The notes beneath the pieces are model-generated. The model was given only the letters and a program-made list of their open reading frames with translations, had not been told where the DNA came from and made no database searches. Positions 1 through 28,246 of a stretch of DNA of 31,479 nucleotides are shown piece after piece (within the stretch, counting starts at the first letter, position 1; every line of letters begins with the position of its first letter). Location of the stretch: the IMG/VR virus record IMGVR_UViG_2547132280_000007. One strand, 5' to 3'. The translations under genes and the position numbers were made by a program. The stretch is from a virus. Lineage: Duplodnaviria; Heunggongvirae; Uroviricota; Caudoviricetes.

Positions 1-642
1 TTAATCGGACGCTTTTAAATTTTTATTTTTCCCTGCAGAAAAATTAGCTTTCCCGCTGTTTTGCAACTCAACAAGAGGAGATAACCGTCGGTAAACAGCC
101 AAAAGTATCTTTAACTGAACCAGTTCATCTGCCCCCGATAGTTGAACCAAGTTTTTACGTTGTTCTTCACTAAGTGCCATCACAGATTCAAGTGATTTAA
201 CTGCGTCAGAAACAAGTTCAATCTCTTTAATTTGATTCTGTATACGCAGCTTCTCTGATTTCAACTTTGCCCATTCTCTTTGTCGATATGTACGCATCAC
301 CTGATCGTAAACTTTGTTGGCAGCCAGAATACTTCCACCAACAGCAGTAACTAACTCAGCAATCTGCCAAGAGATATCAATAAGAGCAGACAATTCAATA
401 AAGCCAGGAGAGGCATACTGAATTTTTTTCACTACAGGACGTAAATCTGGTGGAGTCGCACTGTAAGCCCCTCTAAAAAAGTTCACTACACTGTGCCCAC
501 CCTCCCAAGGCATTGTTGAATATCCTCTTGATCCTCCTTTTAGGCCATAAAAAAAACCATATAGCTGCAAATACTCTTTCGTTAAGACCGCGAAATCAGC
601 TAACTCCCAACGATTATCAAGCTCAATTATAACTTTTTCCAT
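1..642 (-). CDS. hypothetical protein, 213 aa, AT-rich; moron or flanking gene of unknown function
   Basis: Complete ORF (ATG at 642, stop at 1-3) with GGTGG about 6 nt upstream of the ATG. Roughly 38% GC against about 52% for the phage backbone. No motif recognised; C-terminal half looks coiled-coil-like (heptad-rich, K/E/Q/L). Confidence 0.5.
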   Translation of the reverse strand: MEKVIIELDNRWELADFAVLTKEYLQLYGFFYGLKGGSRGYSTMPWEGGHSVVNFFRGAYSATPPDLRPVVKKIQYASPGFIELSALIDISWQIAELVTAVGGSILAANKVYDQVMRTYRQREWAKLKSEKLRIQNQIKEIELVSDAVKSLESVMALSEEQRKNLVQLSGADELVQLKILLAVYRRLSPLVELQNSGKANFSAGKNKNLKASD

Positions 643-2738: not shown

Positions 2739-5186
2739 TTAACCGTCATGCATCATGCTGGCACGGGCGCGCGCACGTTTATCCCGCTCGTATTTTTCGA
2801 GCGCATCCTGTAACTGGCGGTCAAGCTGTGTCCCCGGCGCAGTACCACCCGTCAGGCTGATGTGATATTCGTTTTTACTCTGGTCCACATAAGAGCGGCC
2901 AGCCGGTGCCGTGACCGGCTGATAAGCCTGATAGCCTGCATAAGAGCTGGTCGCCGGAATATAACCACCGGTGCCATACGTGGCGGCATGAGTTCTGGCG
3001 GCGGTCTGGTCAAGTGTGTCTGACTCTTTGTTGATAACACCGAGTTTTTCCAGTACCCAGTCAATACCGCTGCGCAGTTTGTTGAACGCATTAAGCGGCA
3101 GCATCAGCGCGTCAGCCAGTGCCTGCCCGAACATGACGCCCGTGTCACGGCAACGGTTCAGGGTGTCCTGTGTGGCTTTAACCGGAGCAATCAGGTTTGT
3201 AAACCACTGCCACGCGGCCTGTAACTTTTCGCCCAGCCAGTCAAACACCGGCTTAAGTGGCGTGAACAGCTCCCCCACCGGCGCAAATGCCGCTTTCAGC
3301 CCTTCAACCACACCGCCAAAGAATGCGCTGACAGGCTCCCAGTATTTACGGATAAGCAACGCCCCGGCGACAATGGCAGCCACCACGGCCACAACCGGCC
3401 AGCTAATCGCACCGATGGCCGTCATAACGGCACTACCAACCGTCGTGAAGATTGCCCCCATTGCGCCTGCTGCCGCGATAATGGCATTGATGCCGGTGAT
3501 AACCGGCCAGGCTACAAGGCCAATGGCACCGATGATGCCAGTCAGCGCCAGTGCACCGCCGGCAATGAGGCCGATGGTTGACGCCAGTGATTTGTTTTTC
3601 TGTATCCAGCCGTCGAGTTTTAACACATACTTTGTGGCCGTCTGCGTGAGCTTACGCAGCGCGCCTTCCTGCTGGTCAAACAGGTCAGTCCCCACAGCCT
3701 CATAAGCGGACTGAAACTCCTTAAAGTCACCGCCGAGGTTATCCTGCATGATTTTAACCAGCTCTTCCGTTTTACTGTCCGAGGCTTTCAGCGTGGCGGT
3801 CAGCGTATCCAGTTTTCCGCTTGCTGCCGCTGCCAGTAAAACGTTCGCTGATTTCAGGGCTTCCTCACCAAAAATGGTTTTAAGGTATTCCCCCTTCTGA
3901 GACGTTCCCAGCTTGTGTTTATCAAAGCTGGCCTGAATCTCTTTCAGAATGGTGAACAACGGACGCATATTTCCCTTTTTGTCCGAGGTTTTAACGCCAA
4001 GCTCTTTGAGTGCATCCCATGCTTTTCCAGTCGGAGCCTGTAATCGGGTGACAACGGCACTACTACCCGTACCCGCCATTGACCCCCTGATGTTATTGTC
4101 ATGCAGCACACCGGTCATGGCTGCTGCCTGCTCAAGACTTACACCTGCCGTTCTTGCGACCGGACCGAGGTAAGTCAGTGCATCACTGAGTCCCTGAAAA
4201 TCAGCCGCCGACTTATTCATCGTTGCCGACAACACGTCGCCCACATGGCTGACATCATCATTTGACAGTTGAAAGGATGCCTTAGTCCCCAGCAACAGTT
4301 GCGCGTTTTCTTCCATCGACCGCTGATTCGCCAGCGCCATATTCAGCGTGACCGGCGTTGCCGCCTGAATGGCATCAACATCCCCACCCGCTTTCGCGAT
4401 GATTATCTGTGCACCGACCGCATCATCCGCCGAGGCGGCGGTATTGTCGCCGAGCTGGCGCGCCTGTTTGCGTAGTGCGGTCATTTCGGCGGAGTCTTTT
4501 GCCACTCCGAGCACGGCCTGCAATTCTGAGTTTTTCTGCGCAAACTCATAACCGGGCATCAGCAACTTAACTCCGGCCATCGTTCCCGCCGCCGCAATCC
4601 CCACACCGGCAGCGCCCACTGAGGCCATATTTCCGGCCAGTTCCTTTCCGGCCTGATAACGCTGTTTGACTGCGTTAAGTTTGGCCTGTTGCGCACTGAC
4701 ACGCGCCAGCGCGTCACGCTGACGGTTAAGTTGTGCGATGGTTTCACTGATACGGTTTTTCAGTCCCTGCTCATCATGTGCAAGATTGCGGGTATTAATT
4801 CCCACAGCGGCCAGTTCCCGCTGCTGGCGTTTAACGGAATCCGTCAGGCGGTTATATTTCGCCTGTAAGTCCTCCGCCGCACGCTTTGCGGATTCCAGCA
4901 CTTTCGCCTGAGCACGGGTCGGTCGTTCGGTGTTTTTAAACTGTGTGGCAAGGGCTTCGGCCTCCTGCCGTGCCTTTTCAAGTGCATGACCAGTTACGGC
5001 AAGCTGTGCGCTGGTCTTACGGAATCCCTCAATACGGGATACCTGACCGTTCAGCTCGCGCAGTGATTTTTGTGTTTCCCGGATATCCCCCGACAGCGAC
5101 TTGCTCGCTGTACGGATGGATTTAAACGGGCGGGATGCCTGGTCAACAGCCCTGAGCAATACCTGTAATTTTACATTGTTACTCAT
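2739..5186 (-). CDS. T: tail tape measure protein gpT, 815 aa
   Basis: 815 aa; coiled-coil N-terminal region, central hydrophobic Gly/Ala-rich segments; located directly downstream of E/E'. Confidence 0.9.
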   Translation of the reverse strand: MSNNVKLQVLLRAVDQASRPFKSIRTASKSLSGDIRETQKSLRELNGQVSRIEGFRKTSAQLAVTGHALEKARQEAEALATQFKNTERPTRAQAKVLESAKRAAEDLQAKYNRLTDSVKRQQRELAAVGINTRNLAHDEQGLKNRISETIAQLNRQRDALARVSAQQAKLNAVKQRYQAGKELAGNMASVGAAGVGIAAAGTMAGVKLLMPGYEFAQKNSELQAVLGVAKDSAEMTALRKQARQLGDNTAASADDAVGAQIIIAKAGGDVDAIQAATPVTLNMALANQRSMEENAQLLLGTKASFQLSNDDVSHVGDVLSATMNKSAADFQGLSDALTYLGPVARTAGVSLEQAAAMTGVLHDNNIRGSMAGTGSSAVVTRLQAPTGKAWDALKELGVKTSDKKGNMRPLFTILKEIQASFDKHKLGTSQKGEYLKTIFGEEALKSANVLLAAAASGKLDTLTATLKASDSKTEELVKIMQDNLGGDFKEFQSAYEAVGTDLFDQQEGALRKLTQTATKYVLKLDGWIQKNKSLASTIGLIAGGALALTGIIGAIGLVAWPVITGINAIIAAAGAMGAIFTTVGSAVMTAIGAISWPVVAVVAAIVAGALLIRKYWEPVSAFFGGVVEGLKAAFAPVGELFTPLKPVFDWLGEKLQAAWQWFTNLIAPVKATQDTLNRCRDTGVMFGQALADALMLPLNAFNKLRSGIDWVLEKLGVINKESDTLDQTAARTHAATYGTGGYIPATSSYAGYQAYQPVTAPAGRSYVDQSKNEYHISLTGGTAPGTQLDRQLQDALEKYERDKRARARASMMHDG

Positions 5187-5606
5187 TCGTGTTTCCGCTT
5201 CGCCGGAGCGCCTTTTCGCGCCATGTGATGAGTTCGGTCAGGCTCATGGGATACAGTTCTGATGGCGGCCAGTGAAATATCACTGCCACATCCGCCATCA
5301 GGTCATCGACCGAGAGATTTTTCGGAAACGTTACTGCACCGAGTTCGGCGACAAAAAACCGACCACCTTACCGGCCAGTGCCACAAGGTCAGGCAGTTCC
5401 AGCGCGGCGACCTCCTGCTCGGTCAGCATCGGTGCCGTCATGCGCGGCAGCACTTTAATCAGTGCATCGACTTCGGAGTTTGCGACCGCAGCCAGACTGA
5501 CACCGCGCAGCGTCCCGGCATTGGGTTTCATCAGCGTGACCTGTTCGATAACCTGCTCACCACGCTTGACCGGATTGTCCAGGGTAATGACATTTTCTTT
5601 GTTCAT
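5179..5606 (-). CDS. E+E': gpE+E' tail assembly chaperone extension made by -1 programmed frameshift
   Basis: Hand translation: after the heptamer T_TTT_TTG (5358..5352, minus strand) the -1 frame reads VAELGAVTFPKNLSVDDLMADVAVIFHWPPSELYPMSLTELITWREKALRRSGNTNE and stops at TAA 5181-5179, overlapping the T start (ATG at 5186). Confidence 0.75.
5331..5606 (-). CDS. E: tail assembly chaperone gpE, 91 aa
   Basis: 91-aa ORF between FII and T, ending ...GFLSPNSVQ; contains the slippery site near its 3' end. Confidence 0.85.
   Translation of the reverse strand: MNKENVITLDNPVKRGEQVIEQVTLMKPNAGTLRGVSLAAVANSEVDALIKVLPRMTAPMLTEQEVAALELPDLVALAGKVVGFLSPNSVQ
5352..5358 (-). other. -1 programmed ribosomal frameshift slippery heptamer T_TTT_TTG
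   Basis: Minus-strand sequence GGTTTTTTGTCG located 7 codons before the gpE stop; the -1 frame downstream is open for 57 codons. Confidence 0.75.
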
Positions 5607-5662
5607 GGTTTTCTCACTTCTGAATCAGGGTTAACCGGCCAGCCAGGCTGACCGGATGAAAA

Positions 5663-6181
5663 TCACAGGCCGATATTGCGGCGGTGTTGCTCCAGCCGGT
5701 CGACGCCGTTCACCTTCTCAATCATGTTGATGGTGTCAATTTCGACCAGCTCCTTACCGTCCATCGTCAGCCGGAAATAGGTGCAGACCACGGAGATTTT
5801 CGACTCAGTGTCTTCTCCCTGTTTACCCTCGCCGGTGTCGATTTCTTTCTGACGTCCACGCATGACCACTTCGACGGCCACCGTTTCGCCGGTATCGTCG
5901 CGCTGGTAAGAGCCTGCAAAACGAATCGGCACGGCATCCACACCGGTTGCGGCGTAAAGCTCCCAGATAACCGAATCCGGGAAGCCACCGAGCGACCACT
6001 CCATTGACAGCGCATCGTCATCAAGGCCGAGGTCTACCGGTGCGCTGCCGTTCATTCCCGCACCGCGATAGTTTTCGAGCTTACGGGTCAGTTTTGGTAG
6101 CGTGACGGACTTCGCGACGCCCTGATAGCTGTAGCCGTTCAGAAAGACGTTCATTAACTTGAGTTTGCGCGGCATTGCCAT
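5663..6181 (-). CDS. FII: tail tube protein gpFII, 172 aa
   Basis: Synteny and length as P2 FII. Confidence 0.9.
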   Translation of the reverse strand: MAMPRKLKLMNVFLNGYSYQGVAKSVTLPKLTRKLENYRGAGMNGSAPVDLGLDDDALSMEWSLGGFPDSVIWELYAATGVDAVPIRFAGSYQRDDTGETVAVEVVMRGRQKEIDTGEGKQGEDTESKISVVCTYFRLTMDGKELVEIDTINMIEKVNGVDRLEQHRRNIGL

Positions 6182-7480: not shown

Positions 7481-7506
7481 TAAAAAAGGCGGGCAATCAG
7501 CCCGCC
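7481..7506 (-). terminator. intrinsic terminator ending the V-W-J-I-H-G operon
   Basis: Stem ggcgggc (7488-7494) / gcccgcc (7500-7506) with loop aatca; on the minus strand followed by TTTTTT (7482-7487). Confidence 0.65.
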
Positions 7507-7714
7507 TGTATTTATTGCGGTATTTCCGACCATTCAGGATTTGCAGGATCCACACGACCAGAAAGACAGCTACTGATTAATCAGGCCAATAAATACATGA
7601 ACAGTAAGCAATAGCCCGGCAGGTCTGAGGTACTGGCGCAATATAATTTGTGGCTGGATTACCTGTACGCACCGGAGCGGTCCGATACTTCCGGTACGTC
7701 AGATATTGAATGGC

Positions 7715-8125
7715 CTACGCCTCCTGCAGTTCAGGCCAGATGACATCCGGTGCGGTGCTGGTATCTGTTGCCGTCACAGCGTCGATATAATCCAGCACAA
7801 CGTTAAGTCGGGTAGTTTCTTCTTGCGTCAGTTTGCGCCCGGCCTGCAGCTTTAACTGAATCACGCTGATATTGGCCATTGCTGCGTCTATCAGCGACTG
7901 TTTTTTCTGTTCAGCGTCAGCTACCAGTTCATCATGAGAACGTTCCGGAGGGAGCGGCGCAGTAAATACCCCGTCTGAATACCCCCAGCCGATTCCGGGA
8001 TGCTCACTGATATCAGAAATATCAATGAGCTGCTGATTATCCGGCACTGTGAATTCAGCCTCGCCATCCCAGACAATGACATTCACAACCATCCCATTTT
8101 CAATAACTGCATATGACGCATTCAT
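7715..8125 (-). CDS. G: tail fibre assembly chaperone (gpG-position), 136 aa
   Basis: Start ATG overlaps the H stop (TAATG) with GAGGAG 9 nt upstream. Shorter than P2 gpG (about 175 aa), consistent with an exchanged host-range cassette. Confidence 0.75.
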   Translation of the reverse strand: MNASYAVIENGMVVNVIVWDGEAEFTVPDNQQLIDISDISEHPGIGWGYSDGVFTAPLPPERSHDELVADAEQKKQSLIDAAMANISVIQLKLQAGRKLTQEETTRLNVVLDYIDAVTATDTSTAPDVIWPELQEA

Positions 8126-10290
8126 TATGCAAACTCCTCGATAATACAAATCCCAGCGGCACCTTTCCCGCCTGTCATACTGGTTCCGCTATAACCGGCA
8201 TCGTATGCACCACCTCCGCCTGAACCATATGCCTTACCGCTAACGCCACCGCCAGCGCCTGCGCGTCCACCGCCACCCCAGTACGATGTTCCGCCTTCAC
8301 CACTGACGCTGATATTTCCGGACTGACCGTCGCCTCCATTTCCACCAGTGATGCGGATATCGCCAGTACTCGGCACACCTCCGTTACCGCCGTTTGTGTT
8401 TGTAATTCCCACTTTCCCGCCACCTGCGCCACCAGGAGCAATTAACGATGCGAATACGCTATTCCCGCCACTGGTGCCGTTCGTCGCACTAACACCACCG
8501 GCCCCACCTGCGCCGATAGTGACTGGATAACTATTCTGTATCGGGGTCATTATTGAAATTATTGTTCCACCGGCCCCACCGCCAGCACCGAAAAACGTTT
8601 CATTATTGGATATAGCCTTGCAGCCGCCCCCTCCGCCACCGCCGCCCGTTATTGTGACCCTAATCCGTTTTGTTCCTGGCGTCGGGGTGTACGTACCTGA
8701 TGACGTGAAAACCCGGGTATTCACCAAGCGTCCCACGTATCCACTTGCATCGCTCAAGCCAAGGTCAGCAGCAGTAGGTTTAATATGTGAACTGTAAATT
8801 ACATATACAGTTCCATCTGTCAGGCCTGTTGGTTTATTCGCTGTATAAGATGGTGATGTATGAATCGTTACGCTGGCGTTACTGGTATAATCCCACTGAA
8901 TATTAACACGTGTGGTGTAATTACCTATTTCAACATAAACATCATAGGTATCACCGGATGTATTCACCCATGCAAAATTAGTAAATCCAACCGATGTCCG
9001 TCGCCATAACGCACCAGTAAGACCTTTTGGATTCCCATTTCCCGCACGAAGAACAAGTTCAGATATACCAGCCTGCATAGGGGAGTTAACATTATATCCA
9101 GAACCACCAATCAGACTTATGTAAACCACGGAACTGGCCTGTGGCATGGTTACAGTTGCCAGCCTGAACCATCCTGTACCACCACTAAAAGACATGGTTG
9201 TTGAATTTGTTGCTCCAATATTGCGCAGGAATAATCTTTTATCAGGAATATCCGCGCCGTTCTGATCTTTCTGAAGACGTTTTTCAGCATTGTCATAGGC
9301 AGACTTCACCGCTTTCGGTGTTGCGGCCAGCGTTTCAGAAGTGCTATTGGTGGCGCTGCTGAGCTGGACAAGGCCTTTTCGCGCTGTGGTCGCGTCCTGT
9401 GCGGTATATTTCCCGTTAGCAAGGTCATATGCTGTCTTAACCGCCTTTGGCGTTGCCGCAAGCGTTTCAGAATCGCTGTTGGTGGCGCTACTGAGCTGGA
9501 CAAGACCTTTTCGCGCTGTGGTCGCGTCCTGTGCGGTATATTTCCCGTTAGCAAGGTCATATGCTGTCTTTACCGCCTTTGGCGTTGCCGCAAGCGTTTC
9601 AGAATCGCTGTTGGTGGCGCTACTGAGCTGGACAAGACCTTTTCGCGCTGTGGTCGCGTCCTGTGCAGTATATTTCCCGTTAGCAAGATCATACGCGACC
9701 TTTACCGCTCTCGGCGTTGCGGCCAGTGTTTCAGACGTGCTGTTGGTTGCGCTGCTTAACTGAGTAAAACCTTTTGCGGTCAGCGATGCATCCGGGTGTC
9801 GTCGTGAATGTTCGTGTTCTGAGATTTTGTCATCCACATATTTACGGGTCGCCAGTACTACCGACGGGTCGATTTTCAGCGTGATGGCTTCGGTATTCGA
9901 GACAACCAGAATCATGCGGATAGTCTGGGTACGACCACTGCCTTCCTGCAACTGCGGTTTGTACGTTTCCGGGCAGTTCGCCACCGCAATGAGTACGCCT
10001 TCATCATCATAAAGCCCAATCTCACGGATCCAGAATCCTCCCTCGTTTTCAGGGATAATTTGCTCCGCAATAATCTGGCTCTGATTGTTAGGGTCAACAC
10101 TCAGAAGATTCAGCGGTGCAATGCGTTTCTGGTTAATCAGTTTTGTCTGTGCCGGGTCTGGTGTCGGTAATACACCATTCGCATCACCAACGGCCATTTG
10201 CGTCAGATTCAGCTTACTGCCGAGCATCGTCGCGTTAGCCAGTCGTGCTGCGCCCTGATTAGTCAGAATGGCGTAGTATTTCACTGTCAT
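8125..10290 (-). CDS. H: tail fibre protein gpH, 721 aa, mosaic: P2-like N-terminus, four ~40-aa repeats, glycine-rich C-terminal domain
   Basis: The N-terminus MTVKYYAILTNQGAARLANATMLG... is the conserved P2 H baseplate-attachment region. The middle has four copies of GLVQLSSATNSxSETLAATPKAVKxAYDLANGKYTAQDATTARK. The C-terminus is Gly-rich (GGGGGGGCK..., GAGGGAGG, GGNGGDGQSG). Confidence 0.85.
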   Translation of the reverse strand: MTVKYYAILTNQGAARLANATMLGSKLNLTQMAVGDANGVLPTPDPAQTKLINQKRIAPLNLLSVDPNNQSQIIAEQIIPENEGGFWIREIGLYDDEGVLIAVANCPETYKPQLQEGSGRTQTIRMILVVSNTEAITLKIDPSVVLATRKYVDDKISEHEHSRRHPDASLTAKGFTQLSSATNSTSETLAATPRAVKVAYDLANGKYTAQDATTARKGLVQLSSATNSDSETLAATPKAVKTAYDLANGKYTAQDATTARKGLVQLSSATNSDSETLAATPKAVKTAYDLANGKYTAQDATTARKGLVQLSSATNSTSETLAATPKAVKSAYDNAEKRLQKDQNGADIPDKRLFLRNIGATNSTTMSFSGGTGWFRLATVTMPQASSVVYISLIGGSGYNVNSPMQAGISELVLRAGNGNPKGLTGALWRRTSVGFTNFAWVNTSGDTYDVYVEIGNYTTRVNIQWDYTSNASVTIHTSPSYTANKPTGLTDGTVYVIYSSHIKPTAADLGLSDASGYVGRLVNTRVFTSSGTYTPTPGTKRIRVTITGGGGGGGGCKAISNNETFFGAGGGAGGTIISIMTPIQNSYPVTIGAGGAGGVSATNGTSGGNSVFASLIAPGGAGGGKVGITNTNGGNGGVPSTGDIRITGGNGGDGQSGNISVSGEGGTSYWGGGGRAGAGGGVSGKAYGSGGGGAYDAGYSGTSMTGGKGAAGICIIEEFA
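9300..9790 (-). repeat. four tandem direct repeats, 120-bp period, inside H
   Basis: Units starting near 9311, 9441, 9561 and 9681 are near-identical; copies 2 and 3 differ by only a few bases. They encode the 40-aa tail-fibre repeat. Confidence 0.85.
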
Positions 10291-21002: not shown

Positions 21003-22036
21003 TGAGCAAGAAAAAAGGGAAAACACCGCAACCTGCGGCAAAAAAAATGACCGCCAGCGCCCCGAAAATGGAGGCATTCACCTTTGGTGAGCCGGTGCCG
21101 GTACTCGACCGGCGTGACATTCTGGATTACGTCGAGTGCATCAGTAACGGCAGATGGTATGAGCCACCGGTCAGCTTTACCGGTCTGGCGAAAAGCCTGC
21201 GTGCTGCCGTGCATCACAGCTCACCGATTTACGTCAAACGTAATATTCTGGCCTCGACATTTATCCCGCATCCATGGCTTTCCCAGCAGGATTTCAGCCG
21301 CTTTGTGCTGGATTTTCTGGTATTTGGTAATGCATTTCTGGAAAAGCGTTACAGCACCACCGGTAAAGTTATCAGGCTGGAAACCTCACCGGCAAAATAT
21401 ACCCGCCGTGGTGTGGAAGAGGATGTTTACTGGTGGGTGCCGTCCTTCAACGAGCCGACAGCCTTCGCGCCCGGCTCCGTGTTTCACCTGCTGGAGCCGG
21501 ATATTAATCAGGAGCTGTACGGCCTGCCGGAATATCTCAGCGCCCTTAACTCTGCCTGGCTGAATGAGTCGGCCACGCTGTTCCGCCGCAAGTATTACGA
21601 AAATGGCGCACATGCCGGATACATCATGTACGTCACTGATGCCGTGCAGGATCGCAACGATATCGAAATGCTTCGCGAAAACATGGTCAAGTCGAAAGGC
21701 CGCAACAACTTTAAAAATCTGTTTCTCTATGCCCCGCAGGGGAAAGCCGACGGCATTAAAATTATCCCGCTCAGTGAAGTGGCAACGAAGGACGATTTTT
21801 TTAATATCAAAAAAGCCAGCGCCGCTGACCTGCTGGACGCGCACCGCATCCCCTTTCAGTTGATGGGCGGCAAGCCGGAGAACGTCGGGTCGCTGGGTGA
21901 TATTGAGAAAGTGGCAAAGGTCTTTGTCCGCAATGAACTTATCCCGTTACAGGACAGGATTCGGGAAATAAACGGCTGGCTCGGCCAGGAGGTCATCCGC
22001 TTTAAAAACTACTCACTGGACACTGACAACGGCTGA
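21002..22036 (+). CDS. Q: portal protein gpQ, 344 aa
   Basis: 344 aa; start overlaps the P stop (TGATG). Confidence 0.9.
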   Translation: MSKKKGKTPQPAAKKMTASAPKMEAFTFGEPVPVLDRRDILDYVECISNGRWYEPPVSFTGLAKSLRAAVHHSSPIYVKRNILASTFIPHPWLSQQDFSRFVLDFLVFGNAFLEKRYSTTGKVIRLETSPAKYTRRGVEEDVYWWVPSFNEPTAFAPGSVFHLLEPDINQELYGLPEYLSALNSAWLNESATLFRRKYYENGAHAGYIMYVTDAVQDRNDIEMLRENMVKSKGRNNFKNLFLYAPQGKADGIKIIPLSEVATKDDFFNIKKASAADLLDAHRIPFQLMGGKPENVGSLGDIEKVAKVFVRNELIPLQDRIREINGWLGQEVIRFKNYSLDTDNG

Positions 22037-22041
22037 ACATC

Positions 22042-22063
22042 GCCGCCTGCGGGCGGCTTTTTT
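22042..22063 (+). terminator. intrinsic terminator after Q
   Basis: gccgcc-tgcg-ggcggc stem-loop (22042-22057) followed by TTTTTT (22058-22063). Confidence 0.7.
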
Positions 22064-22205
22064 ACACCCCGTCATCACGCCCTCACACGCTCACCACCGC
22101 ACAAAACACCCCGTAGACACACCAACGCCCCGGCGCACAATCTAAACGCCATCAAGACGCGCTCAGACGCTGAAAAAATAAAATCAGCACCACCGCCAGC
22201 GCGCA

Positions 22206-22224
22206 GTGCTTTCCCCGCCTCGCC
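22206..22224. other. cos: cos cohesive-end site (19 nt)
   Basis: gtgctttccccgcctcgcc is the reverse complement of GGCGAGGCGGGGAAAGCAC, which I recall as the P2 19-nt cohesive end. It lies about 170 bp past the Q stop, the expected position. Confidence 0.6.
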
Positions 22225-22299
22225 CGCCCGCTTCATGGGGCGGTTTTAATGCAGTTGCATGAGTACGTTGGAACCGCACTGGTGCTGACGATACCCAAT

Positions 22300-22320
22300 C
22301 AAACCTTGCTGTATAATTAC
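22300..22320 (+). promoter_or_regulatory. candidate sigma70 promoter for the cargo operon
   Basis: TG immediately followed by a perfect TATAAT (22310-22317), about 130 nt upstream of the cargo gene start; the -35 element is weak. Confidence 0.3.
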
Positions 22321-22450
22321 TTGCGAATTCACGCACATCAACGCGAATCTTACATCATGAATAATTCATTTATGGCTACAGAATGAGTATATTGCATGTT
22401 ATGAAATAACTTTGTGCTCCTTCTCGTGGACATGTTCAACGGAGATCCAG

Positions 22451-23572
22451 ATGATTGCTGATTCAGAAATACTTTATGTTCCGCTAGATGATTTGGAACT
22501 TGACACAGAAAACCCAAGACTTCCTGAAGGCGTGTCTCGTGACCAATTGGGAATGATTAACTACATAGCAACCTCAACATCTATCGAAGACTTAATGAGT
22601 GCTATTGCGGAAAATGGTTTTTTCCCTGGAGAACCATTGATTGTCATTCCTGATAGTGGAGCGCCGGGGAAGTACATTGTAGTTGAAGGAAACCGTCGCC
22701 TATCCGCGGTCAAATTATTACGCGATCCGACACTATGTGAAAATCCAAGTGCTCGACTACGAGAAATTGCATCAAATGCAAAACATACGGTCGATCGTGT
22801 TCCTGTCATTGAGCGCCAAACAAGAGAAGAGATTCTTCCGTACCTTGGTTTCAGACATATTACTGGTGTCAAACAATGGGAACCCTTATCAAAAGCTCGA
22901 TATATTAAACAGCTTTTTGATTATACCAATGCAAATCTGGATCCAATGCTACGCTACTATGAGGTTGCCAGAGCTATTGGCAGTCGTAGGGATCATATCA
23001 AGCGTAACCTAGACGCTTTAGCGGTGTATGAAATCATTAAAAAAAATGATTTTTATGGTATTGAAAAGCTAGATGAAGAAACGATTAAATTTTCAGTATT
23101 ATCAACAGCACTTGCTGATGAGCGGTTAGGCCAGTTTGTCGGAGTTTCAATCGAAGACGATGGAGACACAATACCAAGTCATCCTATCATCAATTCTAAG
23201 AGTTTAAAGAACAAAGAAATAAAAGAACTAACTGAATGGTTATATAAAAAAGGCGAGGATAAAAAAACTCGTGTAGGAGAATCACGTAATTTAAGAGAAC
23301 TAGCTGCTGTTGTAAGTAGCCCTAAGGCATTGGAGCAATTCCGAATGGGGGCTCCACTCGCAGTTGCCTATCAATTGACATCTGATATTACTAAGGACTT
23401 TCTCCAGTTACTTTATCAAGTTGAAGCAGCTTTGATAGATGCAGCAGGCATGGTTGCCACGGTAGAGTATGATAGACAGGCCCATGAAGTAGCACGAAGA
23501 ATCAATAAACATATTAAGCTTATAGGTTCTGAAATAGCAGAGAAAAATAGCAGAGGTGATGATGACTTTTGA
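22451..23572 (+). CDS. ParB/Srx-like N-terminal domain protein, 373 aa (cargo gene 1)
   Basis: Start at ATG 22451 with GGAG 6-7 nt upstream. The N-terminal 150 aa follow the ParB N-domain pattern: LDDLELDTENPR, IVVEGNRRLSAVKLL (GxRR box), VPVIER. AT-rich. Confidence 0.7.
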   Translation: MIADSEILYVPLDDLELDTENPRLPEGVSRDQLGMINYIATSTSIEDLMSAIAENGFFPGEPLIVIPDSGAPGKYIVVEGNRRLSAVKLLRDPTLCENPSARLREIASNAKHTVDRVPVIERQTREEILPYLGFRHITGVKQWEPLSKARYIKQLFDYTNANLDPMLRYYEVARAIGSRRDHIKRNLDALAVYEIIKKNDFYGIEKLDEETIKFSVLSTALADERLGQFVGVSIEDDGDTIPSHPIINSKSLKNKEIKELTEWLYKKGEDKKTRVGESRNLRELAAVVSSPKALEQFRMGAPLAVAYQLTSDITKDFLQLLYQVEAALIDAAGMVATVEYDRQAHEVARRINKHIKLIGSEIAEKNSRGDDDF

Positions 23573-24551
23573 AGTAGGAGTTATGCATCCCAACTCTCCT
23601 CATTTGTTTGCAGATTTAGCCGAGTTACTCACGGTAATTAATTATACCGGACGTAACTCACTACATAAAAATGATTTAGATTCAGTAAGAAAATTCGGCA
23701 TAACAAGCGTTGAAGAAATTGATGAAGAATGTAATTCTGAAGAAGAAATTAATGGAGACGCTGAGAGAAATGATCGTTTTGAAGAGCAACTCGAAGATGT
23801 TTGGACACAACTCGAATATAGAGAAAGTGCTCTTGGAAAAATATATCCATTTATAATTTCAGGTGATGAGATAATTATTAAAGAAAATCTAAACCAACAA
23901 CAACGAATATATGTTTTTCTTCTTTGCTGCTCTAGACTTAGATCCTTTAAGTCGATTAAAGGAGCAGCACAACGTTGGGCAAAGAGCTTTGCCAGAGTAT
24001 GTAAAGTAGCAATGATTTCTCTCTTACCTGCACATGGCACCGTAAGAATTTTTGATGCTAACTCCGATGATAGGCAAAATTATTATGGAACAAATCTTCG
24101 GACAGCTCTACAAACTTTAGGAAAAGATCTTGGAGTTTGTAGTTTAAACACAAGGGAAATAAATAGAGCTCCCACATCTGGTGATGCCGGGTTTGACCTA
24201 ATTGCTACAGTGGAATTTCCTGATGGTCAAACTAGCAACTATGGAATTCTTGGTCAATGTGGTGCACAAGAAACAGGGTGGCCAAGCAAAACATTAGAGG
24301 CTAACGTGTTAAAACTGACCACCTATTTCCAAATTGCGTTCCAGCATCCATCAACAATGTTCACGCCTGTTTTCTATCGGGAAGCAAATGGCGAATGGGT
24401 AAGCACACACGCAACCGCTGGGGTATTATTATTAGATAGGTTGAGAATCATATATCTACTTGATAAGGCAAACCAATGGGAAGCGATAACTACCTCTGAT
24501 TGGTTTCGCGAATTTGAGGAAGAGCTTTATACATTAAATCCAGAGCCTTAA
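23562..24551 (+). CDS. hypothetical protein, about 329 aa, translationally coupled to gene 1 (cargo gene 2); possible nuclease or effector
   Basis: Overlaps the gene 1 stop by 11 nt. Start is uncertain (GTG 23556, ATG 23559/23562 or ATG 23583); AGAGG lies 5 nt before ATG 23562. No confident motif seen. Confidence 0.6.
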   Translation: MTFEVGVMHPNSPHLFADLAELLTVINYTGRNSLHKNDLDSVRKFGITSVEEIDEECNSEEEINGDAERNDRFEEQLEDVWTQLEYRESALGKIYPFIISGDEIIIKENLNQQQRIYVFLLCCSRLRSFKSIKGAAQRWAKSFARVCKVAMISLLPAHGTVRIFDANSDDRQNYYGTNLRTALQTLGKDLGVCSLNTREINRAPTSGDAGFDLIATVEFPDGQTSNYGILGQCGAQETGWPSKTLEANVLKLTTYFQIAFQHPSTMFTPVFYREANGEWVSTHATAGVLLLDRLRIIYLLDKANQWEAITTSDWFREFEEELYTLNPEP

Positions 24552-24558
24552 TAGCTTA

Positions 24559-25503
24559 TCAATCCCATAATTCTATTGGCAATGCCTTCGTTACAGCTTC
24601 AAAAAGCGGCGGAGGCACTGCATTACCAACCACCGTGTATTTCATGCCAAGACTTGCAGCATTTGTTTCTGGAAACACTAGATCCTCAAACCCTTGTAAT
24701 AGTGCTGCCTCTCGAAAACTGAATCTGCGAGCTCTCCGATCCTCAACAAATCTCCATTCATCAGTTCTTACTTTCTCCATCGGAGGACTGACAGGATGCA
24801 ACGGCATATGCCTTGCATTAGCAACTATTGTCTTTGAAATTTGATCCCAATCCTGGCGACGATTGCGAGACATATAATACCAATGGAATCCCATATCATA
24901 AAATTCACCTTCTGGCCATTCAGGTAAATGCCCTATAGCATCTTTAATAGTAACATAGTTGACGCCAGTTGCTGGCCCATGAGTTGGCTGAGGGAACTCG
25001 TACTTAACTTTGAAATCATTACGGATTCCTACGATAAATATTCTTTTTCTTTCCTGCGCTACTCCATATTCAGCCGCATTTAAAACTTTTGCGGAAACAG
25101 TATAACCTGCTTCAGTAAAAACCCTGATCTGGTCAGATAACAAATGCTCAAAATTTTTTCTAACCATACCAGACACGTTTTCTACTATAAAAGCTTTAGG
25201 CTTTATATTGTTTAAAGCTCTAGCAAACTCTAAATAAAGAGTATTAATTTTTCGATCGGCTTTACGCGCACCACCCTGGCTGAATCCCTGACATGGATAA
25301 CAACCTACCAGCAAATCAGATTTAGGAAAAGTAGTTACATCAGCAATATTGCCTAATATGTAATCAGTTTCTGGATGATTGGCAATATAAACATCGCGCG
25401 CATACGGCAAGATATCGTTGGCCATAAGCACATCAAAGCCGGCTCTCAAAACCCCCGCATCGGAACCACCGCATCCAGAAAAAAGTGAAACTACTGTTGG
25501 CAT
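24559..25503 (-). CDS. DNA (cytosine-5)-methyltransferase, 314 aa
   Basis: C5-MTase motifs in canonical order: I SLFSGCGG, IV GCYPCQGFS (catalytic Pro-Cys), VI FIVENV, VIII QERKRIFIVG, X VVGNAVPP. Strong SD (GGAGGGGATA) before the ATG. Confidence 0.85.
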   Translation of the reverse strand: MPTVVSLFSGCGGSDAGVLRAGFDVLMANDILPYARDVYIANHPETDYILGNIADVTTFPKSDLLVGCYPCQGFSQGGARKADRKINTLYLEFARALNNIKPKAFIVENVSGMVRKNFEHLLSDQIRVFTEAGYTVSAKVLNAAEYGVAQERKRIFIVGIRNDFKVKYEFPQPTHGPATGVNYVTIKDAIGHLPEWPEGEFYDMGFHWYYMSRNRRQDWDQISKTIVANARHMPLHPVSPPMEKVRTDEWRFVEDRRARRFSFREAALLQGFEDLVFPETNAASLGMKYTVVGNAVPPPLFEAVTKALPIELWD

Positions 25504-25704
25504 TATCCCCTCCTAAAACCGACCGCGTATTATAGCGAAAGCCTCCGTATATAGAAGCAGGTTTTGAACAAGATTATGTTCTCACTTTTTAACAACTGTG
25601 GCCATAAAAAATTAGCTCAATATGAAAAACAGATTAATTCATTGTTTTTCATAGAAAAATTCCACAAACACTATAACATTCCCACAACACTGCAGTAGTA
25701 GTCA

Positions 25705-27981
25705 TTATTGTTTAATTGAAAAAACCGACCACTCATTAGCGACCGGATACGTGAATTTTTTCCCGTCATAATTTACGGTTGCCCCACGCGCCAGCGCCTC
25801 AAGCTCCCATCGCTGCGGCCTGATACCGTTCTGAGCAAGGTCAACGCGGATACGGGTAATTTGCATTCGTTCCGACCGGGTCAGTCTGGCCGATGGTGCC
25901 ATTTCATGCGGTTTTAACGGGCTTCCGTTTCTTTGCTGGCGATTTGGTGTTCTCAGGCCATGTTTTAATGCACCTCTGAGCGCCCTCACGACCTCCGGGT
26001 CATTCCATTCGATGACACCGTCATCAACCAGATTAAGCACTGCTGCGGCGTGCTCAGAAGGTGTGGGGGCTGGTAACGAAGTATCACCACCGGTGAGCTT
26101 TCCACAGTTATTGACAGGACTCCGAGGCGCGGCGATGCCGCTTTTTAAAGTCAAAGGCTCAACGACCGGAACTTTCGGCACAATGCGCCAGTCCGTCGTT
26201 CTGGTGATATGAATATGACGCGCGCCGAGATGCGGCGCGTAAATGCCGACCACTCTCTCGACTTCTTCCTCGTACTCGTTAACGTCATCCGACGGGCTAC
26301 GGGCAACCCTGACAGTCTGACAATCGCGCGGGACATTTGCCCCACCCTGCGCGCTGATATACAACGCAAAATCACCACTGTCTGCGGCAGCGCGAGCAGC
26401 CTCGACGCGTTCGTCAAACTCATCAGCAATACTGACGCCGCGAGGCAATTTGCGTAGTTCACGGTAAGCCCCCATTGTCGGCAGTCCAACCGTTTTAAAT
26501 TGCGGGATGCGCCACGTTGACGCCCATGCGGTAACAGCCGCGGCAGTATCTTTAAGCGGCTTACCGGTATCGTTATCGAGCTGACCATCCAGTGCATAGC
26601 CGTCGATATTTTTTGAAATGTATTTCGCGATATATCCCGCAGCACCGCCCCGGTTAAGGTGCTTTGCCTGAAAACGGTTTCGCGCGGCTCCTCTTTCGTC
26701 ACCATCCTCTTTGAGCGCATAGCGACGCATGATTTCGATAATCTGGTTACGCTGGCGTGGATTACAAAAAAGCATCATATGCCAGTGCGGCGTTCCGTCG
26801 TGGTGTGGCTCGACGACACGCAAACCGTAGACCTGTAAATCATTATCCTTAAATGCCGTGCGCATCAGGCTCCAGATGCGGCAGAGATAACGCTGCGCAT
26901 CCTTTGGATTAAATGCCTCATCGTTCCAGCCGTGATTAAGCTGAACGGTTTTACTTTCGCCTTTTCTGACCTGACGAGTCGGGTGATACTTTGACGGCGC
27001 GGTCAGCGTGATAAACATCCCCACATCACCCTCTGCGGCGGCGTAACGCTCAATACCGGCAATGGTGTTCATCAGCTCCATCCGGCGAATTTCAGGATTA
27101 GAAATACTGCCCATCACCTTACTGATAAGGTCGATGCGCTCGCCGGTTTCCCTGTTTTCAAGGTCACACGATTTAAGAAATTCCAGATTTGCCTGGCGGC
27201 GCGCACGCACATCACGAATGGCGTGTTTACTGGCATAAGGAGAACGGTCTTTATTGACCTCCCCGACAGCTATCAGTAACGCTTCATGCCAGCGCATACG
27301 CTGGCCTTTAAGCTGATGAGTCCACCACTCATCGTTAAACAGACGGGCAATGGCAGAATATGCCTGCCTCGTGGTCATCTGCCCTTTACGGTATTTTTTC
27401 CAGTAGAGCGGGGATATATTGAAAGCACGTGCAGCGCCAGCAACATGACCATAGAGGTGAGCCTGCGCCTCATCCGTAAACAGCGATTCTTTTTCGCCAT
27501 GCGCATCCACCCAGGCATCGCTGAGTTCCTCATACATCATGAAAAGCTGCGATGAGATACGGGCAACAAACTTTTTCAGCTCCTTGTCATTCATTCCCGG
27601 CAGGCGCGCATAGTGGTCACGCTCTGCCAGAAACAGTAACGACGCGTCGGTGTTCATTTCATGGCGCTGATTCACACGCTCAATGCGCGGCCATAAACGA
27701 CGCTGAAAAGTGGATGTGAGGAAATAAAACCCGTGCACCGGGCTTTTATTGCGCCGGATGTAGTCATAGCGTGAAGTAAACAGCGAGCGCAAAAAGTAAG
27801 GCAGGCGGTTAATCGTGGATAAAACACCCTGCACCTGACGCATCTCGTCACGTGTAAGGGGTCTTTCGCGCCCGACAGCCTCGCGTGGCGCGTTCCATGC
27901 ATAAGCACCGGTAAACGCCTTACCGGTGCCTGCGGCAAATACTGACGGAGGGACAAAACGCCCGGAGGCTTTAACGGCCAT
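25705..27981 (-). CDS. A: replication initiation protein gpA (rolling-circle nickase)
   Basis: Large protein directly after B and the small ORFs. Start chosen at MAVKASGRFVPP... (ATG 27981, coupled to the upstream ORF stop); the track ORF extends to 28023. Confidence 0.85.
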   Translation of the reverse strand: MAVKASGRFVPPSVFAAGTGKAFTGAYAWNAPREAVGRERPLTRDEMRQVQGVLSTINRLPYFLRSLFTSRYDYIRRNKSPVHGFYFLTSTFQRRLWPRIERVNQRHEMNTDASLLFLAERDHYARLPGMNDKELKKFVARISSQLFMMYEELSDAWVDAHGEKESLFTDEAQAHLYGHVAGAARAFNISPLYWKKYRKGQMTTRQAYSAIARLFNDEWWTHQLKGQRMRWHEALLIAVGEVNKDRSPYASKHAIRDVRARRQANLEFLKSCDLENRETGERIDLISKVMGSISNPEIRRMELMNTIAGIERYAAAEGDVGMFITLTAPSKYHPTRQVRKGESKTVQLNHGWNDEAFNPKDAQRYLCRIWSLMRTAFKDNDLQVYGLRVVEPHHDGTPHWHMMLFCNPRQRNQIIEIMRRYALKEDGDERGAARNRFQAKHLNRGGAAGYIAKYISKNIDGYALDGQLDNDTGKPLKDTAAAVTAWASTWRIPQFKTVGLPTMGAYRELRKLPRGVSIADEFDERVEAARAAADSGDFALYISAQGGANVPRDCQTVRVARSPSDDVNEYEEEVERVVGIYAPHLGARHIHITRTTDWRIVPKVPVVEPLTLKSGIAAPRSPVNNCGKLTGGDTSLPAPTPSEHAAAVLNLVDDGVIEWNDPEVVRALRGALKHGLRTPNRQQRNGSPLKPHEMAPSARLTRSERMQITRIRVDLAQNGIRPQRWELEALARGATVNYDGKKFTYPVANEWSVFSIKQ

Positions 27982-28246
27982 ATGAGCCAAAAGCCTCTGA
28001 ACAACGCTTGCTGAGTTGCTCAACCTGCGCGTTTAAATCAGCAAAAGATTTTGCGCTTCCGGTCAGAATATCGTGATGCATCAGGCCGGAAACGAGCTGG
28101 CTTAATTTCGGGTAATAACCAACCACTGCCAGCCATTCCTGACCGGCGTTTTTACCGCTTTCCGCTCTCTTTCTCTCGTGGAGAATAAACTGAAAGCTGT
28201 CACTGGTAACGACATAACGTTCGCCAATTTCAATACGAATACTCAT
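27971..28246 (-). CDS. small early protein, 91 aa (P2 orf83-position)
   Basis: Synteny between B and A; overlapping stop/start with neighbours. Confidence 0.6.
   Translation of the reverse strand: MSIRIEIGERYVVTSDSFQFILHERKRAESGKNAGQEWLAVVGYYPKLSQLVSGLMHHDILTGSAKSFADLNAQVEQLSKRCSEAFGSYGR

Follow-up and report, generated by a model that had tools for sequence, protein, structure and literature searches.

Proteins of the ParB fold with NTPase activity are emerging as DNA sensors in bacterial immunity, with SspE, DndI, GmrSD, Menshen NsnA, and PD-lambda-5 as examples, and their mechanisms are known only for fusions of DUF262 with an HNH nuclease. SspE, DndI, and GmrSD all combine a ParB-superfamily NTPase-type domain carrying a DGQQR motif with a fused HNH nuclease, and each of these systems is tied to a modification of DNA (phosphorothioation in the case of SspE and DndI). 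DndB, an ATP-modulated repressor of the dnd genes, belongs to the same superfamily (PMC4507180; PMC10853773). PD-lambda-5, from Escherichia coli ECOR7, is a validated two-gene system described as “ParB/HEPN + methyltransferase” which confers broad anti-phage protection, T-even phages and their modified DNA included. Its cloning required a host from which the mrr region had been deleted, which implies foreign methylation, and its authors regarded it as a compacted RM+Abi system (PMC9519451).

The stretch of DNA analyzed here (hereafter the window, 31,479 nt) corresponds to an entire P2-like prophage of E. coli, and its cargo region is 100% identical to that of several complete genomes, e.g., NZ_CP035826. 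We found in it an exact match to GGCGAGGCGGGGAAAGCAC (0.01 matches expected by chance), the 19-nt cohesive-end sequence of P2, which places cos just ahead of the cargo (Table 1). The linear genome of Yersinia phage HQ103, which encodes an identical ParB-like protein, ends 226 nt upstream of the corresponding gene. In the window, the portal gene Q stops at 22036, and the cassette begins one base past cos and stops short of the replication gene A (gpA, 25705-28023, reverse strand). The cargo is thus flanked by cos and gpA and therefore occupies the cos/gpA interval. This interval is the classical tin/old region, the first defense hotspot of P2 and the home of many validated defense systems (Vassallo et al., 2022, PMC9519451; Rousset et al., 2022, PMC9122126).

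The cargo, whose GC content is 0.37-0.42 vs. ~0.55 for the phage, consists of a ParB-like gene, an overlapping partner gene on the same strand, and a dcm gene convergent with this pair, the two facing stop codons being separated by 7 nt. A consensus promoter scan of positions 22000-25750 returned 9 sites vs. 9.4 expected, so that we claim no promoter for the cassette, and a consensus terminator scan of the same region did not rise above chance either.

Table 1. Coordinates, in the window, of the cassette, its boundaries, and the regions of its proteins.
Feature	Position	Strand	Remarks
P2 cos 19-nt cohesive-end sequence	22206..22224	-	Exact match to GGCGAGGCGGGGAAAGCAC; left cargo boundary
Non-coding region upstream of the ParB-like operon	22225..22450	+	TATAAT at 22312-22317; GGAG 8 nt before the ATG
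ParB-like gene, 373 aa, WP_000559725.1	22451..23572	+	RefSeq CDS “ParB N-terminal domain-containing protein”
ParB/Srx-fold N-domain, ~aa 1-125	22451..22825	+	ENPR at 22508-22519; EGNRR at 22685-22699
Helical middle, ~aa 126-250	22826..23200	+	ParB-like HTH/DNA-binding module; conserved GSRRDHIKRNLDALAVY and KFSxLSTA motifs
Loop R135-H-I-T-G-x-K-x-W143	22853..22879	+	In the place of ParB box III, by-eye comparison
C-terminal helical region, ~aa 251-373	23201..23569	+	GESRNLR motif; long helical hairpin aa 312-369; acidic tail
Acidic tail D370-D-D-F373	23558-23569	+	C-terminal end of the ParB-like protein
Partner gene, 329 aa, WP_000142509.1	23562..24551	+	Overlaps the ParB-like gene by 11 nt
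Partner PD-(D/E)xK-like core, ~aa 155-300	24024-24461	+	Restriction-endonuclease-like fold, from the model
Partner residues D212 / Q232 / K243	24195 / 24255 / 24288	+	Universal in 76 sequences
C5 cytosine DNA methyltransferase (dcm), 314 aa, WP_001143636.1	24559..25503	-	PF00145 5.5e-65; TIGR00675 1.4e-56
Region upstream of dcm to the gpA stop	25504..25704	-	Presumed dcm promoter; right cargo boundary; from gene coordinates

Two other parts of the prophage drew our attention. At its far end, with ogr on one side and fieF of the host on the other, positions 1-642 (reverse strand) encode a hypothetical protein of 213 aa (WP_000416606.1) in a stretch of low GC content (~0.42). This protein matched PD-T4-10_B of PADLOC (E = 1.3e-34) over profile positions 139-346 of 353 only, had no match in Pfam, and had no adjoining PD-T4-10_A gene; it may be a second defense cargo or a partial system. 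Downstream of the tail fiber gene, two RefSeq tail-fiber-assembly pseudogenes (partial, internal stop) lie on opposite strands at ~7531-8065, and the GC skew shifts abruptly at ~7500-9000.

The cassette has been catalogued before. These exact three RefSeq proteins are listed 98 times in the P2-hotspot table of Rousset et al. (2022), as “DNA_methylase + hypothetical + ParBc,” in a study whose main text names neither ParB nor a methylase (PMC9122126). We found no functional test of this exact cassette in the text and supplements of Rousset et al. (2022) and Vassallo et al. (2022). Phage Wphi harbors the same type of cassette (gp98/gp96/mth) at the same P2 locus, with 34% identity; for this cassette, as for the entry of Rousset et al. 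(2022), we recovered catalogue entries and no functional or mechanistic description. Yersinia phage L-413C, the P2-like diagnostic plague phage, has a truncated ParB-like ORF only (locus L086, 207-1199), which aligned to residues 9-303 and abuts orf91 and gene A, the partner and the methylase being gone; this locus is a decayed copy of the cassette. No characterized system composed of ParB, REase, and Dcm was found in literature searches, and the ParB-like/REase pair is not described in the searchable text of the reviews of ParB-superfamily sensors or of the reappraisal of Dnd neighborhoods (PMC10853773). The cassette is related to PD-lambda-5 and is one of a growing number of ParB-superfamily defense sensors, hence not categorically new; an obligatory split nuclease-like partner and the exchange of m5C modules for phosphorothioate ones seem not to have been described before.

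The preliminary description of the first gene had reported the motifs of a ParB N-domain, and we recovered all of them (E20-NPR, Y75-IVVEGNRRLSAVKLL, and V117-PVIER). It had also proposed that the N-terminus belongs to the ParB/Srx group, in good agreement with the ParB/Srx alpha/beta N-domain fold, with its NPR and arginine boxes, that we observed. Its ParB/Srx N-domain leads straight into an HTH-type module, an arrangement also seen in ParB and KorB. It thus shares with the canonical CTPase clamps (ParB, KorB, and Noc) the fold of the N-domain, the NPR and GxRR boxes, and the HTH immediately downstream, whereas box III of canonical ParB (ENLQR) is replaced in this family by an RHITGxKxW loop and the C-terminus differs. 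The DNA-binding module looks like the HTH of ParB and KorB, which sets the protein apart from SspE, DndI, and GmrSD.

Profile searches, which had been suggested as a check on the ParB assignment, gave a mixed picture. The matches to ParB_N of Pfam (PF02195, E = 0.11, 13 bits vs. a gathering score of 26.3) and to TIGR00180 (4.8e-8, 33 bits vs. a cutoff of 58.45) both fell below threshold, whereas the PD-Lambda-5_A model of PADLOC (PDLC04013) matched with E = 6.2e-29, residues 9-282 aligning on profile positions 7-277 of 440. The protein was recognized by over 20 other models of PD-Lambda-5_A as well, most of them covering only the N-terminal ~150 aa. Among 43 family members, 11 matched ParB_N at E ≤ 0.01 and 12 gave marginal matches to GmrSD_N (DUF262; best E 6e-4), which had no match in the protein of the window itself; at the Pfam level, the family thus appears as close to GmrSD_N as to ParB_N. 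A profile of 43 homologs aligned GNRR to the GERR box of Helicobacter pylori ParB (4umk), with a weak score (E = 0.021).

A plasmid or prophage partition ParB could be considered, as the protein combines a ParB-fold N-domain with an HTH and some of its homologs are named “chromosome partitioning protein ParB.” We rejected it and regard it as extremely improbable: the TIGR00180 score lies below the cutoff, box III is replaced, no parA is annotated in the window or in the related loci, and the obligatory neighbor is a nuclease-fold protein. In addition, P2 integrates into the chromosome. The preliminary description, which had favored an effector or sensor over a segregation protein, was right in its direction; the neighbors turned out to be a nuclease-like gene and a methylase.

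Across 77 homologs from many phyla, N21-P-R23 and E79-G-N-R-R83 are conserved at ≥99%, and D18, N21, P22, R23, E79-G-N-R-R83, and the loop Y131-x-G-x-R-H-I-T-G-x-K-x-W143 at 95-100%. The acidic residue preceding the glycine of EGNRR is shared with the enzymatic DGQQR and DGQHR branches. The RHITGxKxW loop is the sole internal low-confidence segment of the structural model: residues 135-140 (22853-22870) have a pLDDT below 50, yet nowhere in the family is conservation higher. This combination suggests, at the level of the model, a mobile catalytic or nucleotide-gating loop.

The C-terminal 220 aa, previously thought to lack an obvious counterpart, did find some: PDLC04013 covers residues 9-282, and the PADLOC candidate PDC-M38A aligned to residues 43-339. 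From Enterobacteria to Methylomonas, Thiobacillus, Burkholderia, and Pseudomonas, the protein is ~60% identical over its full length, and the family, nearly all of whose proteins have 355-400 aa, comprises 661 clusters at 50% identity for E ≤ 1e-30 and 2070 for E ≤ 1e-10 (1.84 billion representatives). The C-terminal end reads DDDF in the close proteobacterial clade (17/77 loci) and EDEL in the dnd-linked clade of Bacteroidota (e.g., L046, L052, and L053). Such an acidic tail, closed by a hydrophobic residue, resembles the C-terminal tip of SSB (DDDIPF) and might serve as a docking peptide, either for the partner or for proteins of the host.

The likeness to PD-lambda-5 concerns first the A protein, which is homologous (E = 6e-29), a relationship drawn from the PADLOC HMMs and from the HHpred table of Vassallo et al. 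(2022); both systems are moreover linked to a methyltransferase and borne by prophages in E. coli. Several features set them apart. PD-lambda-5A has ~500 aa and a weak C-terminal HEPN-like region, whereas the protein of the window has 373 aa and no such region, its RRINKH sequence (Rx4H, aa 349-354) not being conserved (H replaced by N in most homologs). The methylase of the two-gene PD-lambda-5 is of the Dam type (MethyltransfD12), in contrast to the C5 enzyme (PF00145) of the three-gene cassette. The latter also includes one gene more, for an REase-fold protein; this gene is obligatory, is not covered by any PADLOC model, and is absent from PD-lambda-5. With SspE, DndI, and GmrSD, the cassette shares the association of a ParB-superfamily NTPase-type domain with a nuclease-type fold as well as the link to DNA modification, but the nuclease-type fold is here that of a separate PD-(D/E)xK-fold protein and the motif is EGNRR; the ParB-like protein of the window has neither DUF262 at threshold nor a fused DUF1524 HNH nuclease, nor any HNH domain.

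The partner had no match in Pfam, NCBIfam, or PADLOC, and a PDB sequence search with the profile of its family returned nothing meaningful; only the comparison of folds gave matches. Its AF2 model (pLDDT 85.4, pTM 0.88) shows an N-terminal winged helix and a restriction-endonuclease fold. The model was matched to PD-(D/E)xK enzymes with scores of 6.3 for NgoMIV, 6.2 for MspJI, 6.1 for FokI, 5.9 for LlaBIII, and 5.7 for AspBHI, with Cfr10I, SgrAI, HindIII, AgeI, and NucC as further matches, and the Foldseek ranking was headed by MspJI (E = 6e-3, probability 0.98), followed by BsaWI. For a model-based assignment of the nuclease fold, these structural scores are modest. D212, Q232, C233, W240, K243, R293, and R295 are universal among the 76 sequences aligned. 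D212 is located just before a beta strand and Q232 at the end of the next one, a spacing which resembles the D-x20-QxK motif of MspJI. The position of the triad lysine is occupied by a glycine (G234) in 76/76 sequences, and the invariant K243 lies 11 residues downstream of Q232. Migration of the lysine is known in the active sites of REases of the NgoMIV/Cfr10I type.

These features raise the question of which protein would be the effector. The ParB-like protein could play this role itself, either as a ParB/Srx nuclease or as an Osa-like NTP-degrading enzyme, the partner then being a dead REase-fold subunit for recognition or regulation; ParB/Srx superfamily members with nuclease and NTPase activities have been reported (Maindola 2014, in the account given by PMC10853773). 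Such a role would fit the E-G-N-R-R motif, acidic residue included, being conserved at ≥99%, as well as the glycine found at the triad-lysine position in all partners. Against it, one would hardly expect D212, Q232, K243, R293, and R295 to be invariant across phyla in a dead domain, and the REases of the type in which the lysine has migrated rank high in the structural comparison of the partner. We thus consider it unlikely that the ParB-like protein is the effector, and retain the partner as the candidate nuclease.

The third protein, Dcm, has M.HaeIII as its closest solved structure (1.4e-48), with an alignment over the whole length that includes the target-recognition region; judged from sequence, its specificity is assignable as far as “HaeIII-like” and no further. 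The convergent layout with a 7-nt gap is kept from E. coli to Methylomonas. In two other loci (L065 and L081), Dcm is 74-75% identical vs. 32% for the ParB-like protein and 23-26% for the partner, as is usual where the methylase is conserved and the restriction subunits evolve fast. With the Type II R-M systems whose methylase is M.HaeIII-like, the cassette shares the convergence of a methylase gene and an REase-fold gene and the much higher conservation of the methylase relative to the restriction genes, and the adjacent DNA methyltransferase typical of these systems is present in the window. The restriction side, in contrast, consists here of two genes, one of them encoding a ParB-like putative NTPase, and the REase-like core is devoid of the triad lysine. 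At least four complete loci have no modification module within reach.

A scan of one genome per species yielded 80 loci, whose ORFs were analyzed with HMMs from the two alignments; module counts were taken over 83 loci. In every locus long enough to show both, the ParB-like gene was followed by the partner gene on the same strand, and the two overlapped or were at most 17 nt apart. This constant spacing suggests that the two proteins are co-translated and act in a complex. The pair was found, among others, in Proteobacteria, Bacteroidota, Acidobacteriota, Chloroflexota, Actinomycetota, and Firmicutes.

Two types of modification modules accompany the pair. A C5 methylase adjoined it or was near it in 43/83 loci, either convergent downstream, co-directional downstream, or upstream. 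The identities of these methylases to the E. coli enzyme fell into three groups (~57-77%, ~45%, and ~28-31%), pointing to at least three lineages. In 23 of the 83 loci, mostly from Bacteroidota, dndC, dndD, and dndE(i) were located directly upstream of the pair, in the same orientation and operon, and no methylase was present. DndC was recognized there by PAPS_reduct and DndD by AAA_23/SMC, and DndE was either plain or fused to an ATPase. In many loci of Bacteroidota (L038, L039, L048, L055, and others, ~4400-5980), the gene directly upstream of the ParB-like gene encodes a DndE of ~525 aa fused to a HerA/FtsK-like ATPase, the “DndEi” type, whereas other loci have a plain DndE of 130 aa. The dnd-linked ParB-like proteins formed a single clade in the neighbor-joining tree. 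Altogether, a Dcm or Dnd module was present in 66/83 loci; neither was detected in the other 17, several of which are truncated contigs, and tblastn searches for dcm remnants in the loci devoid of methylase found none. Intact pairs without a modification gene within reach were observed in L013, L019, L020, and L025 (also in L005, L011, and L012), amid housekeeping genes such as those for citrate synthase, aconitase, NadA, and GMP synthase.

Some loci optionally have a fourth gene, for an HNH_2 endonuclease (PF13391, ~310-324 aa), which is inserted between the partner and dcm in L010 (8048-8980) and immediately precedes the pair in L047 (3036-4010), L068 (1838-2800), and L069 (1422-2396).

The dnd-linked loci bring in a further possibility, in which the ParB-like protein would be a DndB-like regulator of the neighboring dcm or dndCDE, limiting over-modification instead of sensing foreign DNA, and the partner a separate restriction enzyme. 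DndB sets a precedent for a ParB-superfamily repressor of dnd (PMC4507180; PMC10853773), the ParB-like protein has an HTH, and no dndB was detected ahead of dndC in the dnd-linked loci, so that homologs of the window protein sit in dnd operons apparently lacking this gene. DndB itself was nevertheless rejected as an identity, the motif being EGNRR and neither the protein of the window nor its dnd-linked homologs matching the dndB or DGQHR models of NCBIfam. The gene of this family, in contrast to dndB, is located at the 3′ end of the dnd operon and is always translationally coupled to the nuclease-like gene, even in loci without a modification gene, and its relative PD-Lambda-5_A is required for defense in a two-gene system (PMC9519451). 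A regulator of this kind therefore seems very unlikely to us.

The intact orphan pairs could instead indicate that the pair operates on its own, independently of modification or in a modification-dependent manner (Type IV-like or abortive infection), the methylase being an unrelated anti-restriction or epigenetic phage gene that travels along. The presence of the modification-dependent MspJI and AspBHI among the best structural matches of the partner goes in the same direction, as does the activity of PD-lambda-5 on T-even phages with modified DNA (PMC9519451). The pair is, however, tightly linked to a modification module in 66/83 loci, in fixed layouts (convergent with a gap of 0-10 nt, or within the operon), the dnd-linked proteins are monophyletic, and a Type IV enzyme targeting m5C beside a C5 methylase of its own cassette would destroy self DNA if the two acted in the same sequence context. 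We consider this scenario distinctly unlikely.

That the three genes form a modification-linked defense system of one kind or another is probable in our view. The more precise reading that we prefer, to which we give an even chance of being correct, is that of an R-M-like cassette, with the methylase marking self, the ParB-like protein as sensor or clamp, and the partner as nuclease. The HaeIII-like C5 methylase would mark, and thereby protect, the DNA of the resident chromosome and prophage. The ParB-like protein, with its putative NTP-binding ParB/Srx domain, its HTH, and its helical C-terminus, would act as a DNA-bound, NTP-gated sensor or clamp reading the modification status, and would control or recruit the co-translated winged-helix PD-(D/E)xK partner, which would form a complex with it and cut unmarked incoming DNA, presumably including that of phages. 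The cassette would then be a lysogenic-conversion cargo of the P2 cos/gpA hotspot and, functionally, a split version of the SspE, DndI, and GmrSD effectors, in which a ParB-like NTPase is associated with a nuclease, as well as a three-gene relative of PD-lambda-5. The observation at the basis of the preliminary description is thus confirmed, and its interpretation partly supported; the protein is better viewed as one subunit of a conserved three-gene cassette.

Such an R-M-like logic predicts that modification modules are exchanged while the reader/nuclease pair stays constant, and the interchangeable modules track the phylogeny of the pair. Also in favor of this reading are the position of the cassette in the hotspot, the homology to PD-Lambda-5_A, the ParB/Srx fold with its HTH and invariant EGNRR, the REase fold of the partner with its conserved D212, Q232, and K243, the strict pairing of the two genes, the conserved convergent layout, and the contrast between a conserved methylase and restriction genes that evolve fast. 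The intact orphan pairs, the missing triad lysine of the partner, and the modest scores of its nuclease fold count against the R-M-like reading or leave it unsettled, as does the fact that a single family of pairs would have to read both m5C and phosphorothioate.

The interest of the cassette is that of a compact, phage-borne three-gene model that is experimentally tractable in E. coli, in which the putative sensor and the putative nuclease are separate proteins and the putative self-mark is a simple C5 methylation. Beyond this locus, and much more tentatively, the pair might represent a widespread and unrecognized class of restriction modules in which a ParB-type NTP-gated clamp replaces the helicase, translocase, or fused reader of known R-M types, coupled in the course of evolution to self-marks of different chemistry: to m5C (at least three methylase lineages), to phosphorothioate (DndCDE), and, in the relatives of PD-lambda-5, to m6A. 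If true, many dnd operons of Bacteroidota would have in this pair the restriction partner that they seem to lack. As a sister clade is found inside dndCDE operons, the family could therefore explain what restricts DNA in many phosphorothioation systems without DndFGH, a question raised previously (PMC10853773). The same family could be used to test whether CTP/NTP-switch clamps have been recruited for the discrimination between self and non-self.
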